DNA from: Desulfatibacillaceae bacterium
Lineage (GTDB): Bacteria; Desulfobacterota; Desulfobacteria; Desulfobacterales; Desulfatibacillaceae
Assembly: GCA_030018745.1 (NCBI GenBank)
Contig: JASEHB010000001.1
Location: forward strand, 1-31,468
Direction of reading: 5' to 3'
Length of the DNA: 31,468 nt
Positions within the stretch are counted from its first letter, which is position 1; every line of letters starts with the position of its first letter. A program made the translations under genes and the position numbers. This document shows, one piece after another, positions 9,049-14,795 of the stretch. The notes below the pieces were generated by a model that was not told the DNA's origin, made no database searches, and saw only the letters and a program-made list of their open reading frames with translations.

Positions 9049-10503
9049 TCATTCCGGCACAAAGCGGCTTTTTACCTTGTGTTTGCGCAACAGCTCGTAG
9101 AGCCTTGGCACCGAAAGCCCGGAAATGTCCGAAGCCTCGCGCACATTGCCGTCCGCCTGGCTCATCAGGGACACAAGGTATTTGCGCTCTGCTTCCCCAA
9201 GCACATCCCTGCGAAAGCGCTTCCAGGGCTTGACGGGCTTTGTCGGCTCTTCACTGGCCACAGCGGAAAGGGCTGCATCTTCAACAGGCTCCGGTACATT
9301 TTTTAAGCCCGTGCGCACTGCATGAACCCGTATGTATTCGGGCAAATGCCGCCCAAAGAGAATGGATTCATCGCGGGCAAGGGCAAAAACGCCGTCCAGC
9401 GTATGAAAAAGCTCCCGCACATTGCCCGGCCAGGGATAGGTTTCCAGAACCTTGATAAAGCTTGCGGAAAGCTCCTTTTCTTCCACCTTGTATTCAGCGC
9501 ACCTGCGCAGCAGGTGATGGCGGGCCAGGGGGGCAATGTCCTCAATGCGCTCGCGCAGAGGCGGAATTCTTATGGTAACGCTGCGTAGCCGGAAAAGGAG
9601 ATCCTCCCGGAAAAGCCCTCCCTTTACAAGCTCGTCCAGGTCCTTGTTGGTGGCCGAGACAAGCCGAAAATCGCTGGACACCTCCGTAAGATCTCCCACA
9701 GGCCTGAATCGCCGGTTTTCAAGAACCCGCAGAAAGGCTTTTTGCACGGCTAAAGGCAACTCCCCCACCTCGTCCAGAAACAGGGTTCCACCGTCTGCGT
9801 GCTTTATAAGCCCGGTTTCAGAGCGGTGGGCGTTGGTGAAGGCCCCTCTGTTATGCCCCATGAGGATGCTTTCTGCCAAGTTGTCCGGCAGCGAGCTGCA
9901 ATCTACAACCACAAAGAGCCGGTCAGCTCGCTTGCTGTTCTCGTGGATTGCCCTTGCAAGAAGCTCCTTGCCTGTTCCGGATTCGCCGGTGACAAGAACA
10001 TTGGCCTCGTTGGCCGCACATTGGGCTGCTATGCTCAAGCAGCTTTGCAGGGCCAAGCTCTCTCCCACAATGGCAGGCCGTGCAAAACCGGCAAGGGGGT
10101 CGCGCAGAGTTTTCTGGGCGCGGTACTGAAGGGTGTTTTCCAGGGCCTGGTCCAGAGCGCTCAAGGATACCGGCTTTTGCAGGTAATCCCAGGCATTGGC
10201 CTTAATGGCCTCCTCTGCACCCTGAACATCTGCATATCCTGTCATAACAATCACTTCGGGCGCGCCACGGCTTTTTTTGATGGCCGAAAGGTAATCCAGC
10301 CCGCTGCCATCAGGAAGGCGCACATCCAAGAACACCACATCAAAAGCCTCCTGACCGGCCTTTTCCAGGGCATTATCCAGAGTGTGGGCGCAGGCAACCA
10401 GATGACCCGCATCTACAAAGACCCGTGTCAGGGAATCGCAGATTTCAATGTCATCATCCACGATAAGCAGCTTGGCAGCCAGCGTTTTCTTGATGTTTTC
10501 CAT
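9049..10503 (-). CDS. sigma54-dependent response regulator (REC-AAA+-Fis HTH, NtrC family)
   Basis: Start reassigned to ATG 10503 (SD GAGGGA); 484 aa. REC LIVDDD/FLDVRLPD, Walker A GESGTGKE, GAFTNA loop, Walker B LFLDEVGEL, FREDLLFRL, WPGNVREL, C-terminal HTH. Confidence 0.95.
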   Translation of the reverse strand: MENIKKTLAAKLLIVDDDIEICDSLTRVFVDAGHLVACAHTLDNALEKAGQEAFDVVFLDVRLPDGSGLDYLSAIKKSRGAPEVIVMTGYADVQGAEEAIKANAWDYLQKPVSLSALDQALENTLQYRAQKTLRDPLAGFARPAIVGESLALQSCLSIAAQCAANEANVLVTGESGTGKELLARAIHENSKRADRLFVVVDCSSLPDNLAESILMGHNRGAFTNAHRSETGLIKHADGGTLFLDEVGELPLAVQKAFLRVLENRRFRPVGDLTEVSSDFRLVSATNKDLDELVKGGLFREDLLFRLRSVTIRIPPLRERIEDIAPLARHHLLRRCAEYKVEEKELSASFIKVLETYPWPGNVRELFHTLDGVFALARDESILFGRHLPEYIRVHAVRTGLKNVPEPVEDAALSAVASEEPTKPVKPWKRFRRDVLGEAERKYLVSLMSQADGNVREASDISGLSVPRLYELLRKHKVKSRFVPE

Positions 10504-10528: not shown

Positions 10529-13249
10529 TCAAATGGCCGGCTTTTGCAGCTCTTTGCTTTGGCCGGTATCATACTCCGGTGTGGCGGCCCGGCGTTTGGC
10601 TTTGGGGGCAACCTTTAAAATTTCTTTTGCAATCTCTGCGGCAGTAACGGGTTTTCGCACAACGCTTTTGATGTTTGGCAGGCGCTCAATTTGCTCCAGG
10701 GCGTTTTCCGAAAAGCCAGAACACAAAATCACGGGTAGATCCGGGCGGATGTCATTGATGATTTTTGCAAGCTCAAGGCCGTTCATGTCCGGCATTCGCA
10801 TATCCAGAACAACTGCATCAAAAAAGGAGGGCGCCTTTTTAATTTTTTCCAGGGCGCTGCCTGCAGAAAGCTCGACAAAGGACCTATAACCAAGGTCGTC
10901 AAGCCCTGCGGCAATGGCATTGGCAAGAATGGGCTGATCATCCACAACAAGAACCTGCAAGGGGCGTCCCAGAGATTCCTGTAAGGCATTCCGGTCAAGG
11001 GCCTCCTGCTGGGCAGATGTCTGGCTTGCAGGAATCCACACATCAAAAATGGTTCCCGATCCAATGCGGCTCTGTACCCGCAGGAAGCCGCCAAGTTCAA
11101 GCACTATGCCATGCACCACGGAAAGGCCAAGCCCTGTGCCTTCCCCTATTTTGCGGGTGGTGAAAAAAGGCTCGTAGATGCGCTCCAGAACATGGTGGCT
11201 CATTCCGCAACCAGTATCCTTCACGGAAAGGACCACAAACTCTGAATTATCAGGCAGATGAGAATAATCCTCATCTGCTTCTGCAAGTTTTGCGTTTTCC
11301 AGAAAAACACGCAAATCTCCACCCTTTGGCATGGCCTGAATGGCGTTTGTGCAGAGATTTAAAAGTATTTGCTGGATTTGGTAGGGCGTTGCCCGAACAG
11401 TATCATTTTCCGCATTTATTGAGACAGTTACGGAAATGTTCTCCGGGCATGATGCACGGACAAGTTTGATGGTTTCCTTTACAACGGGTGAAAGGGAAAA
11501 ATTTTCCGGAGTGTGAACGCCGGAGCGGCTGAAGGCAAGAAGCTGTCCGACCAGGTCTTTGGCCCTTTGAGAAGATTCCAGAGCTTTTTCAAGGGCCTGG
11601 CGCAGTTGGGGCGAATCGGCGGACTTTTTTATGCCGTACTCAATGTTTAGCATTATGCTCATGAGTATATTGTTGAAATCGTGGGCAACACCGCCTGCCA
11701 GGGTGCCAACGGCTTCAATTTTCTGCATGGCAAAGCCCCGCCGGGCCAGCTCCACTTCGCGGGTGACATCGCGCACTGCGGCGATTATGCTTTTTATCCG
11801 CCCCACATCATCTGTCACCGGGCTGAAAAGAATGTCCAGCCAAAGGGCGTTGCCAAGGCTGTTTTCCATTTCGCACCGGCCCGTGTGAGCCTGCCGGGTT
11901 TTAAGCACAATTCTAAAGGCGGCCATGGGCGATATGCCCTGGCTCGGCTCCTTTTCCCAGCATTCCAGCGCCTCGGCGCAGTGTTTTCCGACAGCGCCTT
12001 CCTGCGAAAGCCCGCATTTGTCCAAAAAAGGCGCGTTGAGGTCTGTTATTATGCCGTTGGCGTCAACAATAAAGATTTCCTCTTGTATGCTTGAAAGGAT
12101 ATTGCGGAAGTAGTCCTCGCTCTTTTTAAGGGCCTGCTCGATTTTTTCCCGCTCAACAATGTCTGCCTTAAGGGCCTGGTTGGCGTCTTCCAGATGCAGG
12201 GCAGATTGGCGGATTTTCTCCACCAGGGCGTCAAAGGCATTGGAAAGGGCGCCTATTTCATCCGCGCTGCCAAGAGTGAGTGGCAGGGATGCTGTTTGAT
12301 CCCTGCCCAGCAAGTTAAGCCTTTGGGTAAGGGATCTCACAGGCAGAAGAACCGTGCGCCGGACCATTTGGTGCAAAAGCAGAAAATAAATTGCGCAGAT
12401 AATTACCGTGGCTGCCAGTGAAAGGGATGTCATGCGCAGGCCCTGCTGAAAAATATTGCGGGGAATATGCGCAGAAAGGGTAAGAACAGGTTTGCCCATA
12501 AGGCTGGGAAGCACAGTGGAGACCACAAGGGTTTCCGATGAGGACTTGGCAAAGTAGATGGGCCGGTTATTGTGAAGAATGACAGCATCTTCCGGCCCCG
12601 GTGGCCGTGGCTGGTCAAGGGAAAGGGTAAGCCTTGTCTGGATTGCCATCCGCTCAAGAAACCTGTCGTCAAGGAATATGCCCATCAGAAAGGTGCCCTT
12701 GGGCGGACCTACATTGTTGCTGTCCAGAATCGGATACACGGCCACAATCATTGGCCCGCTGGAGCTTGGATAAAGCCCTGTTTTTGCGGCATCCTTGTAG
12801 GCCTGGCCGGGTTTTGCCCGAAAGAGAAGCGGGTGTGTGCTGTGCAGCCTGCCTTCAGAAAGCTCCGGAAGGGTTAGTTGGACCTCCTCTTCCAGATCCC
12901 ATATCTGTCCCCACACCAGATTGCCATGCTCGTCATACAGGTTGAACAGGTTTATGCGGTTGTCAAAAAATGATGAGGGCACCAGATTGCTTTCAATGTA
13001 CAGGCTGTTTTTATCCTGAATGAATTCATAGGTATGGTCCCAGGCAGCCCAGTCCCAGCAGGTGAGTCCCAGGCGCTCTGCCTGGCCTTCAATTGCAAGA
13101 ATGGCCCTCTCCAGATCCTGGGCCGCCTCCTTGAACTCCAGGCCTGAAAATCCTTCAAGAATGATATAGCGGTGAAAGCCAAACAGGGAGGCAGAAAGCA
13201 GCACGAAAATAACAAGCAGCAGCAAAACCATTTTTCTTGCCACGGTCAT
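10529..13249 (-). CDS. Hybrid sensor histidine kinase (TM-CHASE4-TM-HAMP-PAS-HisKA-HATPase-REC)
   Basis: Start at ATG 13249 (SD GGAGAGG); 906 aa. CHASE4 signature DWAAWDHTYEF, H-box GGVAHDFNNIL, NLCTNAIQAM, DTGCGM, PFFTT, GTGLGL, REC VLVVDD/VLDMRMP. Confidence 0.95.
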   Translation of the reverse strand: MTVARKMVLLLLVIFVLLSASLFGFHRYIILEGFSGLEFKEAAQDLERAILAIEGQAERLGLTCWDWAAWDHTYEFIQDKNSLYIESNLVPSSFFDNRINLFNLYDEHGNLVWGQIWDLEEEVQLTLPELSEGRLHSTHPLLFRAKPGQAYKDAAKTGLYPSSSGPMIVAVYPILDSNNVGPPKGTFLMGIFLDDRFLERMAIQTRLTLSLDQPRPPGPEDAVILHNNRPIYFAKSSSETLVVSTVLPSLMGKPVLTLSAHIPRNIFQQGLRMTSLSLAATVIICAIYFLLLHQMVRRTVLLPVRSLTQRLNLLGRDQTASLPLTLGSADEIGALSNAFDALVEKIRQSALHLEDANQALKADIVEREKIEQALKKSEDYFRNILSSIQEEIFIVDANGIITDLNAPFLDKCGLSQEGAVGKHCAEALECWEKEPSQGISPMAAFRIVLKTRQAHTGRCEMENSLGNALWLDILFSPVTDDVGRIKSIIAAVRDVTREVELARRGFAMQKIEAVGTLAGGVAHDFNNILMSIMLNIEYGIKKSADSPQLRQALEKALESSQRAKDLVGQLLAFSRSGVHTPENFSLSPVVKETIKLVRASCPENISVTVSINAENDTVRATPYQIQQILLNLCTNAIQAMPKGGDLRVFLENAKLAEADEDYSHLPDNSEFVVLSVKDTGCGMSHHVLERIYEPFFTTRKIGEGTGLGLSVVHGIVLELGGFLRVQSRIGSGTIFDVWIPASQTSAQQEALDRNALQESLGRPLQVLVVDDQPILANAIAAGLDDLGYRSFVELSAGSALEKIKKAPSFFDAVVLDMRMPDMNGLELAKIINDIRPDLPVILCSGFSENALEQIERLPNIKSVVRKPVTAAEIAKEILKVAPKAKRRAATPEYDTGQSKELQKPAI

Positions 13250-13514
13250 GGCGCCTCTCCAGATAAAAACCGCTCTCAGGGCAATCGGGAAAGGGAATCT
13301 GAAGGCGCAAAAAGGCTGCTGCCAAATTTTTTCAGATGAGCCGGGCACCCGGAGCCCTTATTTTAATGTGCCAAAAAGCAGGCTTTAAAGCAATAGAAAA
13401 AATAAATACACAAGCCAACTATAGCAAGAAAAGAACAATGGCTTTGAAGACAGCAGGAACTCCGGGAAGGGCTTGCCCCAGACCGGAATTTTTTTGCATC
13501 CATTTCCTTAAAAG

Positions 13515-13537: not shown

Positions 13538-13615
13538 TAAAATATCCGGATAAGGCAAGTTGCCGATATGCCAAACTCATTCTTGCCCACATGGAGAAAA
13601 TTCTTTTCCCCGTCC

Positions 13616-13643
13616 AAAAAGTTATGCTAATTACATAATTTTT
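13616..13643. promoter_or_regulatory. Candidate upstream activator sequence (near-palindrome)
   Basis: AAAAAGTTATGCTAATTACATAATTTTT, core TTATG-N7-CATAA (13622-13638), centred about 130 bp upstream of the predicted sigma54 start. Confidence 0.5.
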
Positions 13644-13658
13644 AAAGCCCCATGTCAA
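13630..13658 (-). promoter_or_regulatory. sigma70 promoter for the kinase/regulator operon
   Basis: Minus strand TTGACA (13658-13653)-N17-TGTAAT (13635-13630). Confidence 0.55.
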
Positions 13659-13722
13659 GCGTTTTTATTCACCAGGGGCTTTAACCCCCCCAAACAATGG
13701 CAGAAATTTGAATGTAGAAAAT

Positions 13723-13735
13723 AATCAATTTGTTG
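13723..13735 (+). promoter_or_regulatory. IHF binding consensus
   Basis: AATCAA-TTTG-TTG exactly matches WATCAANNNNTTR, with an A-rich tract upstream. Confidence 0.55.
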
Positions 13736-13749
13736 GCACGGTTTTAGCT
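13734..13749 (+). promoter_or_regulatory. sigma54 (-24/-12) promoter
   Basis: TGGCACGGTTTTAGCT versus consensus TGGCACG-N4-TTGCW: one mismatch, correct GG-N10-GC spacing, followed by AT-rich ATATAAATATA. Confidence 0.72.
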
Positions 13750-13759
13750 ATATAAATAT

Positions 13760-13938
13760 AGCAGGCGAGGGTGGCCGGGTTGTGACAACAGCGCGTGGCA
13801 GAAACGGGTTTTAAAGCAGATTTCGGGTGTCGGCGTCACCCTTGTCTGCAAAACCTTCGGCATAACCCCCGTACACAGCCTGGCCCCCTCTCCCAATCGG
13901 CGCTTCTTGAATTTTCAGGAAGCCGCCGGTTTTTTTTT
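13760..13938 (+). ncRNA. Putative sigma54-dependent structured small RNA (~180 nt), family not recognised
   Basis: Bounded by the -24/-12 promoter and an intrinsic terminator. Closing stem 13767-13786 / 13871-13890; apical stems 13807-13829 / 13837-13855. No ORF with an SD. Confidence 0.62.
13898..13938 (+). terminator. Rho-independent terminator
   Basis: CGGCGCTTCTTGA-ATTT-TCAGGAAGCCGCCG followed by G and T9. Confidence 0.85.
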
Positions 13939-14078
13939 GCGTTTGTGATGGATGTATTTAATGCATGGCCAAACTTGGCGACAGCGGTGCTGAAAAAATC
14001 CTGAAACAGTTTTTTTGCTTTTGGGGCAATGGCAGAACTTGAATTGTGATTGCAGAACCAAAATTTGGTTGGGGAAGG

Positions 14079-14762
14079 CTATTTTTTAATGGCATCCAGC
14101 ATGAGGCCGGGCAGGCCGGGAACGCGGCTCACCCGGACTTTTTTCAGTGGGAGTTTTTTGGCAAGCTCGCGCATCTCCTCCATATCCAGGGAGGGGCCTG
14201 CCACCTTTACCAGGTAGAAGATGCGGAAGATGGGCTTTGCAAAAAAAGGCAGGGGGGTTTTTTGGGCCAGGTAGGCCACATCTTCAAGGCGGCAGCCCCT
14301 GTCCGCCTCCACCACCAGAAGCCTTGAGCCGGGTTTTAACACCCGCACGCATTCAACAAGGCCCTTTAGCCTGTCGGGCCAGTGTTTTATGCAGCCAATG
14401 CTCACCACAAGGTCAAACTCATTGTCCGGCAGGGGCATATCCAGGGCAGATGCGGTTATGGCGCTCATTCTGGAGCCATAAGGCGCAAGGCGCTTTTTTG
14501 CGCGGCGAATCTGGTCGCTGGAGAGATCCACGCCAAGGCCCCTTGCGTTGGGCCGCCTTTTTGCGATGTATTCCAAAAGCTGGCCGCCGCCGCAGCCCAC
14601 ATCCAGCACAAAGGCGTCATCCATGCCGTCCATTAAGCCCAAAGCCTGCTCAAAATGGCTGTAAAAACCGGCCACGGTCGGGGCGATGAAGTGGTCGTAA
14701 AACTTTGACTCCAGACGGGTATAGGGCTTTGTTGAGTCTTTGACCATGCTGAACAGGCTCAT
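14079..14762 (-). CDS. Class I SAM-dependent methyltransferase (UbiE/Methyltransf_11-like)
   Basis: Start at ATG 14762 (SD GGAGG); 227 aa. VLDVGCGGG, GVDLS, ALDMPLPDNEFDLVVS, RVLKPGSRL. Confidence 0.9.
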   Translation of the reverse strand: MSLFSMVKDSTKPYTRLESKFYDHFIAPTVAGFYSHFEQALGLMDGMDDAFVLDVGCGGGQLLEYIAKRRPNARGLGVDLSSDQIRRAKKRLAPYGSRMSAITASALDMPLPDNEFDLVVSIGCIKHWPDRLKGLVECVRVLKPGSRLLVVEADRGCRLEDVAYLAQKTPLPFFAKPIFRIFYLVKVAGPSLDMEEMRELAKKLPLKKVRVSRVPGLPGLMLDAIKK

Positions 14763-14795
14763 GGCAGACCTCCATTTGGGGAGGGGGTTTTTCAA

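Follow-up and report, generated by a model that had tools for sequence, protein, structure and literature searches.

A probable sigma54-dependent small RNA gene linked to a hybrid sensor kinase and its NtrC-type activator in Desulfatibacillaceae

Results

A promoter, a rod-shaped predicted RNA and a terminator beside a kinase/activator operon

The window, i.e., the whole 31,468-nt stretch of a Desulfatibacillaceae contig that was analysed, carries on its minus strand a two-gene operon. The first gene (10529-13249, -) encodes a hybrid sensor kinase with the Pfam domain order CHASE4-HAMP-PAS-HisKA-HATPase-REC, and the second (9049-10503, -) encodes an NtrC-type sigma54 activator (REC-AAA+-HTH). 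A sigma70-like sequence that may serve as the promoter of this operon spans 13630-13658 (-), with TTGACA at 13653-13658 and TGTAAT at 13630-13635 separated by 17 nt. On the plus strand, divergent from the operon, a sigma54 -24/-12 promoter sequence, TGGCACGGTTTTAGCT, occupies 13734-13749. It has the GG-N10-GC spacing and matches 11 of the 12 consensus positions, the deviation lying in the -12 element, which reads AGC (or GGC) for TGC. Transcription is predicted to start near 13760 (+). The next gene downstream encodes a class I methyltransferase (14079-14795, -) and is convergent to the unit described here, leaving no gene downstream on the plus strand. Across the 3.3-Mb genome of the window (designated G000), ten intergenic sigma54 sites score at least 11/12, among them the site at 13734-13749, which is the sole strong intergenic sigma54 site with a terminator, and without a gene, behind it. 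The genome encodes rpoN (contig C526).

The RNA that would be transcribed from this promoter has a strong predicted fold. The plus-strand segment 13758-13938 has a predicted folding energy of -84.4 kcal/mol (z = -5.6), a value not reached by any of 200 dinucleotide shuffles. The fold comprises a rod-shaped body of 130 nt (13764-13893) and an intrinsic terminator hairpin (13895-13931) with a T-run extending to 13938 (T9, 13930-13938). In the rod, a basal stem (13764-13784 / 13874-13893) is followed by a central bubble (about 13785-13805 / 13856-13873) and an apical arm (13806-13855), in which the helices GGGUUUU/AAAACC, GCAGAU/GUCUGC and GGGUG/CACCC are capped by the loop UCGGCGU (13830-13836). 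The initial annotation of this DNA, made from the letters alone, had described the same sigma54 box with one mismatch, a long, extendable basal stem (13767-13784 with 13874-13890), the stacked apical arm with its TCGGCGT loop, a terminator hairpin with T9 (here at 13895-13938) and a convergent downstream gene, all of which were recovered. The internal loop that it placed at 13787-13794 / 13864-13870 is also present, but it is larger than proposed.

The minus strand of the locus has a weaker fold (-75 kcal/mol). Because four G-U pairs of the rod would become A-C mismatches if the minus strand were read, the RNA is assigned to the plus strand. The word (U)CGGC(A/G) is repeated in the 3' side of the bubble, in the apical loop and in the terminator. 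The rod RNA gene is present as a single copy in the genome.

The predicted RNA matches no catalogued family

The initial annotation had not recognised the family of this RNA, and the comparison with Rfam 15 bears this out. At the gathering threshold, the sole match in the whole window was a tRNA; at E<=10, the region 13600-14050 yielded only chance matches of at most 18 bits, with no match to Qrr, GlmY_tke1/GlmZ, CrcZ, Pxr, SRP or CsrB. The most divergent copy of the RNA, found on the metagenome contig L145 (see below), gave nothing real in Rfam either.

Three known types of regulatory RNA were considered and rejected. The locus is not a 6S RNA gene: the 6S model (RF00013) does not match there even at E<=10, and the canonical 6S RNA of the genome is encoded elsewhere (G000:C290:7685-7871 (+), 79.9 bits). 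A CsrA sponge of the CsrB/RsmZ type was set aside, as the unit contains a single GGA, in the terminator loop, in keeping with the lack of GGA repeats remarked on in the initial annotation. An Hfq-dependent pairing sRNA was likewise rejected; Hfq was not detected, there being no Pfam match to it in a genome estimated to be 100% complete.

Weak matches to the Rfam narK RNA model (RF03032; ~17 bits against a 43-bit threshold) were observed in two unrelated loci, L145:2477-2530 (-) and L059:3049-3108 (-). Both cover a sigma54 -24/-12 box and may owe their scores to promoter-like sequence and not to RNA structure.

The RNA accompanies the kinase operon in three species

A BLAST search over 60 relatives returned one homologue, in G001, a second species of the same genus, where the RNA has 88-92% identity and occupies the same position relative to the kinase operon. 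A search of metagenome contigs with the kinase sensor domain revealed one further orthologue of the kinase, on L145 (about 79-80% amino acid identity). A covariance model built from the window and G001 copies (R1) matched just upstream of this kinase gene, in divergent orientation, with 104 bits. The same metagenome species was seen in a second run (contig L157), and its RNA copy there is identical to that of L145. Models R1 and R2 found no copy in 12 genomes of the family, 150 genomes of the order and 87 kinase-related loci, and over seven metagenome loci they returned only the copy of the metagenome species. A match in another genome of the family, G007, lies within a coding region and was discarded. 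A search for sequencing runs containing the locus returned no RNA run; in a landfill DNA run, 13% of the words of an 8-kb stretch were present and none was placed on the locus.

The sensor part of the kinase has only three orthologues among 5.8 billion proteins, and the RNA lies upstream of each of them. The identity of the activator is above 90% within the orthologues and then falls to 55% beyond them. On the flank away from the kinase operon, the RNA of the metagenome species is bordered by a gene for a Fer4/CCG protein and not by the methyltransferase gene, which indicates that the RNA travels with the kinase operon. This arrangement bears on the possibility that the hairpins are a cis element producing no discrete RNA, for example a bidirectional terminator for the methyltransferase operon or an insulator of the kinase promoter. 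The terminator, located 140 nt past the stop of the convergent methyltransferase gene, is well placed for such a role, but the minus strand has no U-tract after the hairpin, the rod stays with the kinase operon where the convergent gene is replaced, and a conserved sigma54 promoter is directed into the rod. We consider a cis element highly improbable.

The sequence of the unit is conserved well above its surroundings. The promoter (13734-13749) is identical in G001 and reads TGGCACGGTTCTGGCT in the metagenome species. Between the window and L145, identity is 60% at the four-fold degenerate sites of the kinase gene and 30% in the spacer 13673-13731, compared with 79% in the rod (13764-13893; 79-82% across copies) and 89% in its 3' half (13856-13893), the best-conserved portion of the molecule; the promoter core is retained. 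Flanking spacers are 30-50% identical. Within the rod, the sequences of the bubble strands and of the apical hairpin are kept at least as well as those of the helices, and this conservation of the unpaired bubble strands and of the apical hairpin indicates contacts with another molecule. The terminator hairpin and the U-rich tail are found in G001 as well and, more weakly and with a changed sequence, in L145. The repeats of the (U)CGGC(A/G) word are incompletely kept in G001.

Outside the unit, both hexamers of the putative kinase-operon promoter are kept in the three-species alignment. In the window and G001, but not in the metagenome species, whose entire spacer at this position does not align, an IHF-consensus-like site, AATCAATTTGTTG (13723-13735), adjoins the -24 box. 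The 5' leader of the kinase gene contains a block (13338-13377, -) that is kept in all three species and consists of TTTTTGGCACATT followed by a GC-rich hairpin, GGGCUCCGGGUGCCCGG.

What is maintained among the three copies is the pairing. In the model alignment, 96% of the paired cells are paired, against 46-58% when the partners are slid, and two to three pairs have compensatory changes that keep the pairing, RNAalifold identifying three (U-A to A-U, G-C to A-U and A-U to G-C). Covariation across the three sequences is not significant, with 63 of 500 shuffles equalling it, because only three distinct sequences are available. The follow-up in related genomes that the initial annotation had called for thus produced homologues in G001 and L145 and conserved pairing, but not significant covariation.

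The same alignment bears on whether the transcript instead encodes a short peptide. Each species has possible ORFs of 10-61 codons, but they differ among the three in frame, start and length and have no common start, and the 69-codon ORF at 13795-14004 has no Pfam match. No conserved ORF is shared by the three species: indels of 1 and 2 nt shift every frame, so that a protein-coding frame is not maintained. A small protein gene appears to us extremely improbable. Hence, as had been expected of a structural RNA, the homologues keep base pairing and not a reading frame. At the level of sequence, these comparisons establish that the rod RNA is conserved beyond neutral expectation, is non-coding and is linked to the kinase/activator pair.

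A palindrome shared by related activator loci connects the RNA to the regulator

The palindrome TTATG-N7-CATAA at 13622-13638 is a candidate activator-binding site (UAS). It precedes the -24 box by 111 bp and is kept in all three orthologous loci. In five loci, namely, the window, G001, L145, G006 and G003, the core form TATG-N7-CATA is located 99-111 bp ahead of the -24 box, and G007 has TATG-N5-CATA at -89 from its sigma54 promoter. We estimate that ~0.03 such palindromes would be expected by chance per 260-bp region. The specific form of the palindrome occurs nowhere else in the genome, and a genome-wide search for a palindrome regulon gave three matches where ~2 were expected, that is, no regulon beyond the locus.

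The loci that share the palindrome contain related activators. Activators 53-57% identical to that of the window are encoded in four other genomes, representing three other genera of the family, and three of those loci have, just 3' of the activator gene, a sigma54 promoter that drives type IV pilin-like genes; the operon on contig C88 of G003, for example, encodes FimT/GspH-, PilV- and PilW-like minor pilins. Because sigma54 promoters next to related activators have this palindrome in common, the RNA can be tied to the regulator encoded beside it. On good comparative evidence, the palindrome at 13622-13638 would be the binding site of this activator subfamily, with the RNA as its target, and given that the specific form is unique, the activator may have no direct output other than the RNA. 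The palindrome also overlaps the -10 box of the putative sigma70-like promoter of the kinase operon, an arrangement that would allow autoregulation of the operon.

The activator of the window is a paralogue and not PilR proper, as the canonical pilS/pilR/pilA set of the genome, with a sigma54 promoter of its own, is located on another contig (G000:C53:300-3686). That promoter, TGGCACGCATTATGCT at C53:671 (-), is located immediately 3' of pilR, and the gene that it drives encodes a Geobacter-like pilin of type IVa. The sigma54-contact loop of the window activator is GAFTNA, and it is the same in all three orthologues (window, L045 and L145). Among 120 relatives, the loop is GAFTGA in 61, GAYTGA in 40, GAFTSA in 10 and GSFTGA in 7. 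The GAFTNA loop coincides with the non-consensus -12 element (AGC or GGC) of the presumed target promoter, and this combination suggests that activation could be weak or unusual.

In G007 (contig C12), the locus L059:2905-3109 (-) has a sigma54 box, TGGCACAAGTCTTGCT, beside an activator 57% identical to that of the window, followed not by a pilin gene but by a rod-like predicted RNA (-81 kcal/mol, z = -5.2). This rod RNA was not detected in five other genomes of the family, has no Rfam match and shows no detectable homology to the rod RNA of the window; it may be an independent second RNA output of this activator subfamily. On its 3' side, two tandem repeat units of ~120 nt (L059:2380-2620, -) are located within ~700 nt without a convincing ORF.

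Proposed circuit and mode of action

The locus very probably contains a real non-coding RNA gene of ~175 nt that is switched on by the neighbouring two-component sensor through the sigma54 promoter. The initial annotation had likened it to sigma54-dependent sRNAs encoded beside their two-component systems, an analogy supported by the presence of rpoN, by a unit that is conserved at every known orthologue of the kinase and by the recurring palindrome.

We propose the following circuit. A signal would be perceived by the CHASE4 hybrid kinase (10529-13249, -) and passed by phosphorelay to the NtrC-type activator (9049-10503, -). Bound at TTATG-N7-CATAA, ~110 bp upstream of the -24 box, the activator would remodel the sigma54-RNA polymerase waiting at 13734-13749, and the resulting transcript would start near 13760 and end at the T9 terminator. 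Its rod-shaped product, in which a large bubble of conserved sequence would separate a long basal helix from a conserved apical hairpin, would act in trans as the main, and perhaps the sole, output of the two-component system. The most likely mode of action would be Hfq-independent antisense pairing via two conserved unpaired stretches of the bubble, AGCGCGUGGCA in its 5' strand and UUCGGCAUAACCCCCG in its 3' strand. Transcription, activation by this activator, action in trans and the mode of target recognition are what we infer from the locus. The model in full, with a stand-alone, regulator-driven RNA gene at 13760-13938 (+) whose product acts in trans as an antisense RNA through the bubble, is in our estimate moderately probable.

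The searches for an antisense target gave no outstanding candidate. A duplex-energy screen over ~4,500 start regions contained no outlier, its best match (on C41) falling within the expected extreme. Pairing with the kinase leader was no better than that of shuffles and is not conserved, and pairing with the mRNA of a FimT-like gene of the genome (see below) ranked at the 43rd percentile of random genes and is not conserved either. The C-rich 3' strand, moreover, is largely tied up in the basal helix, which counts against the antisense pairing model.

The lack of an outstanding antisense target leaves a protein-binding role as a serious rival. The same transcript, under the same control, would then be a decoy whose bubble and apical loop sequester a protein, either RNA polymerase, by a short 6S-like mimic of an open promoter, or another protein, as in decoys of the GlmY or CrcZ type. 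Like 6S RNA, the rod has a closing helix that is separated from a second one by a large central bubble, and the high conservation of the bubble and apical-loop sequences, the recurrence of (U)CGGC(A/G) at the three sites named above and the failure to detect Hfq all agree with protein binding. Conversely, the Rfam 6S model is silent at the locus and recognises the genuine 6S RNA elsewhere in the genome, the rod measures ~130 nt against ~185 nt for 6S, CsrB-type GGA repeats are missing, the repeated word is only partly preserved in G001, and none of the nearby genes encodes a candidate partner protein. We regard the decoy as unlikely and retain antisense pairing as the preferred mode of action of the rod RNA.

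Comparison with known sigma54-dependent RNAs

Several features of the sigma54-dependent sRNA class that includes Qrr, GlmY, CrcZ and Pxr are present at the locus, namely, the promoter, rpoN, an adjacent activator and a candidate UAS. The rod RNA very probably represents an uncatalogued family within this established design, in which a sigma54-dependent sRNA is encoded beside its regulator.

In Vibrio, qrr1 adjoins luxO and is divergently transcribed. Qrr sRNAs are produced from sigma54 promoters through LuxO, the NtrC-type response regulator that ends a phosphorelay (PMC10162802). The window RNA resembles this system in being a presumed sigma54-dependent sRNA under an NtrC-type regulator and in the divergent arrangement of the neighbours. 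It differs in its architecture: Qrr RNAs are ~100 nt long, Hfq-dependent and composed of several stem-loops and often occur in several copies, whereas the window RNA is a single-copy rod in a genome in which Hfq was not detected, with no match to Qrr in sequence or in Rfam. The glmY gene has a sigma54 promoter with upstream activator sites and an IHF site, and adjoins the genes of its two-component system (PMC3045617, PMC8745638). GlmY with GlrK/GlrR (= QseE/QseF) of Enterobacteriaceae is comparable in that the system acts mainly through the sRNA. In contrast, GlmY is a RapZ decoy homologous to GlmZ, and for the window RNA we found no homology to GlmY, no link to RapZ and no overlapping sigma70 promoter, while the IHF-like site is not kept in the metagenome species.

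Pxr of Myxococcus and its relatives is a sigma54-dependent, lineage-restricted sRNA that is always located beside one NtrC-type regulator, Nla19 (PMC5568312). It shares with the window RNA an origin in a formerly 'deltaproteobacterial' lineage, a fixed regulator neighbour and a narrow family. Pxr, however, is ~108 nt long, has three stem-loops and lies downstream of nla19, whereas the window RNA is one rod with a terminator, located upstream of and divergent from the kinase gene, and has no match to the Rfam Pxr model. In Desulfovibrio vulgaris, four sigma54-dependent non-coding RNAs were placed in activator regulons by comparative genomics (PMC4641369). That case concerns a sulfate reducer and the same type of inference, but the order differs, and no relation at the sequence level was detected. 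Finally, although 6S RNA (SsrS) is a rod of the same layout, the window RNA is shorter and has its own terminator and a sigma54 promoter, whereas the 6S promoter is of the housekeeping type.

The rod RNA would thus add an uncatalogued family to the sRNAs that serve as dedicated outputs of sigma54 two-component systems, in an uncultured lineage of the sulfate-reducer type in which Hfq was not detected. Its practical value is limited, as only three hosts, all uncultured, are known; the comparative data nevertheless amount to a testable circuit of sensor, activator, palindromic site, promoter and RNA.

A possible origin from a minor-pilin gene

In sister genera, the related activators have minor-pilin operons as their output, with a promoter homologous to that of the rod RNA, and this hints at how such circuits arise. 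A search for the pattern TGGCACGGTT.T.GC followed after 12-13 nt by AGGYGAGGG, which describes the promoter and the first transcribed bases of the rod RNA, found one other genome among the 401 of the order, at the minor-pilin promoter of G006; controls with the reversed pattern gave zero matches. This agreement with a pilin promoter suggests that the output of the regulator may have switched from pilins to an RNA. The G006 pilin leader itself was rejected as a rod, being unstructured (z = +1.9).

The genome of the window has a minor-pilin operon of its own (FimT/GspH-, PilV- and PilW-like; G000:C579:5139-3646, -), with a counterpart in G001 (L156) and no sigma54 box upstream of the C579 operon. 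A 15-nt segment of its FimT-like gene, GGCGTCACCCTTGTC, which comprises the codons for G-V-T-L-V, is identical to 13832-13846 in the apical hairpin of the rod. This identity is a weak clue to the origin of the RNA: nhmmer found no extended homology of the rod RNA to the pilin gene, and a 14-mer of the apical hairpin occurs in an unrelated gene as well. We offer only tentatively a scenario in which the 5' portion of a minor-pilin gene, comprising its promoter, its first bases and perhaps some codons, gave rise to the RNA gene; in this genus, a PilR-like two-component system would have exchanged a pilin operon for the RNA as its output, and the C579 operon would have left sigma54 control. If true, it would represent a traceable birth of a small RNA from the 5' end of a protein gene, with inheritance of the regulator of that gene.

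The same similarities could be read as decay. A minor-pilin gene under sigma54 control would have disappeared from the locus or been relocated, and its promoter, leader and initial codons would persist there, transcribed or silent, as a functionless remnant. The shared promoter and AGGYGAGGG element, the G-V-T-L-V codons and the very narrow distribution would all fit such a remnant. It is made unlikely by the conservation of the rod, which far exceeds that of the four-fold sites and neighbouring spacers; furthermore, compensatory changes maintain the helices, the terminator directly follows the rod in all three species, and indels have destroyed any pilin frame. With the pilin similarity itself limited by the nhmmer result and by the second occurrence of the 14-mer, we judge a decaying relic quite improbable. 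As a separate observation on the C579 operon, its first prepilin has an unusual processing site, G|VTLVE as opposed to G|F, in both species of the genus.
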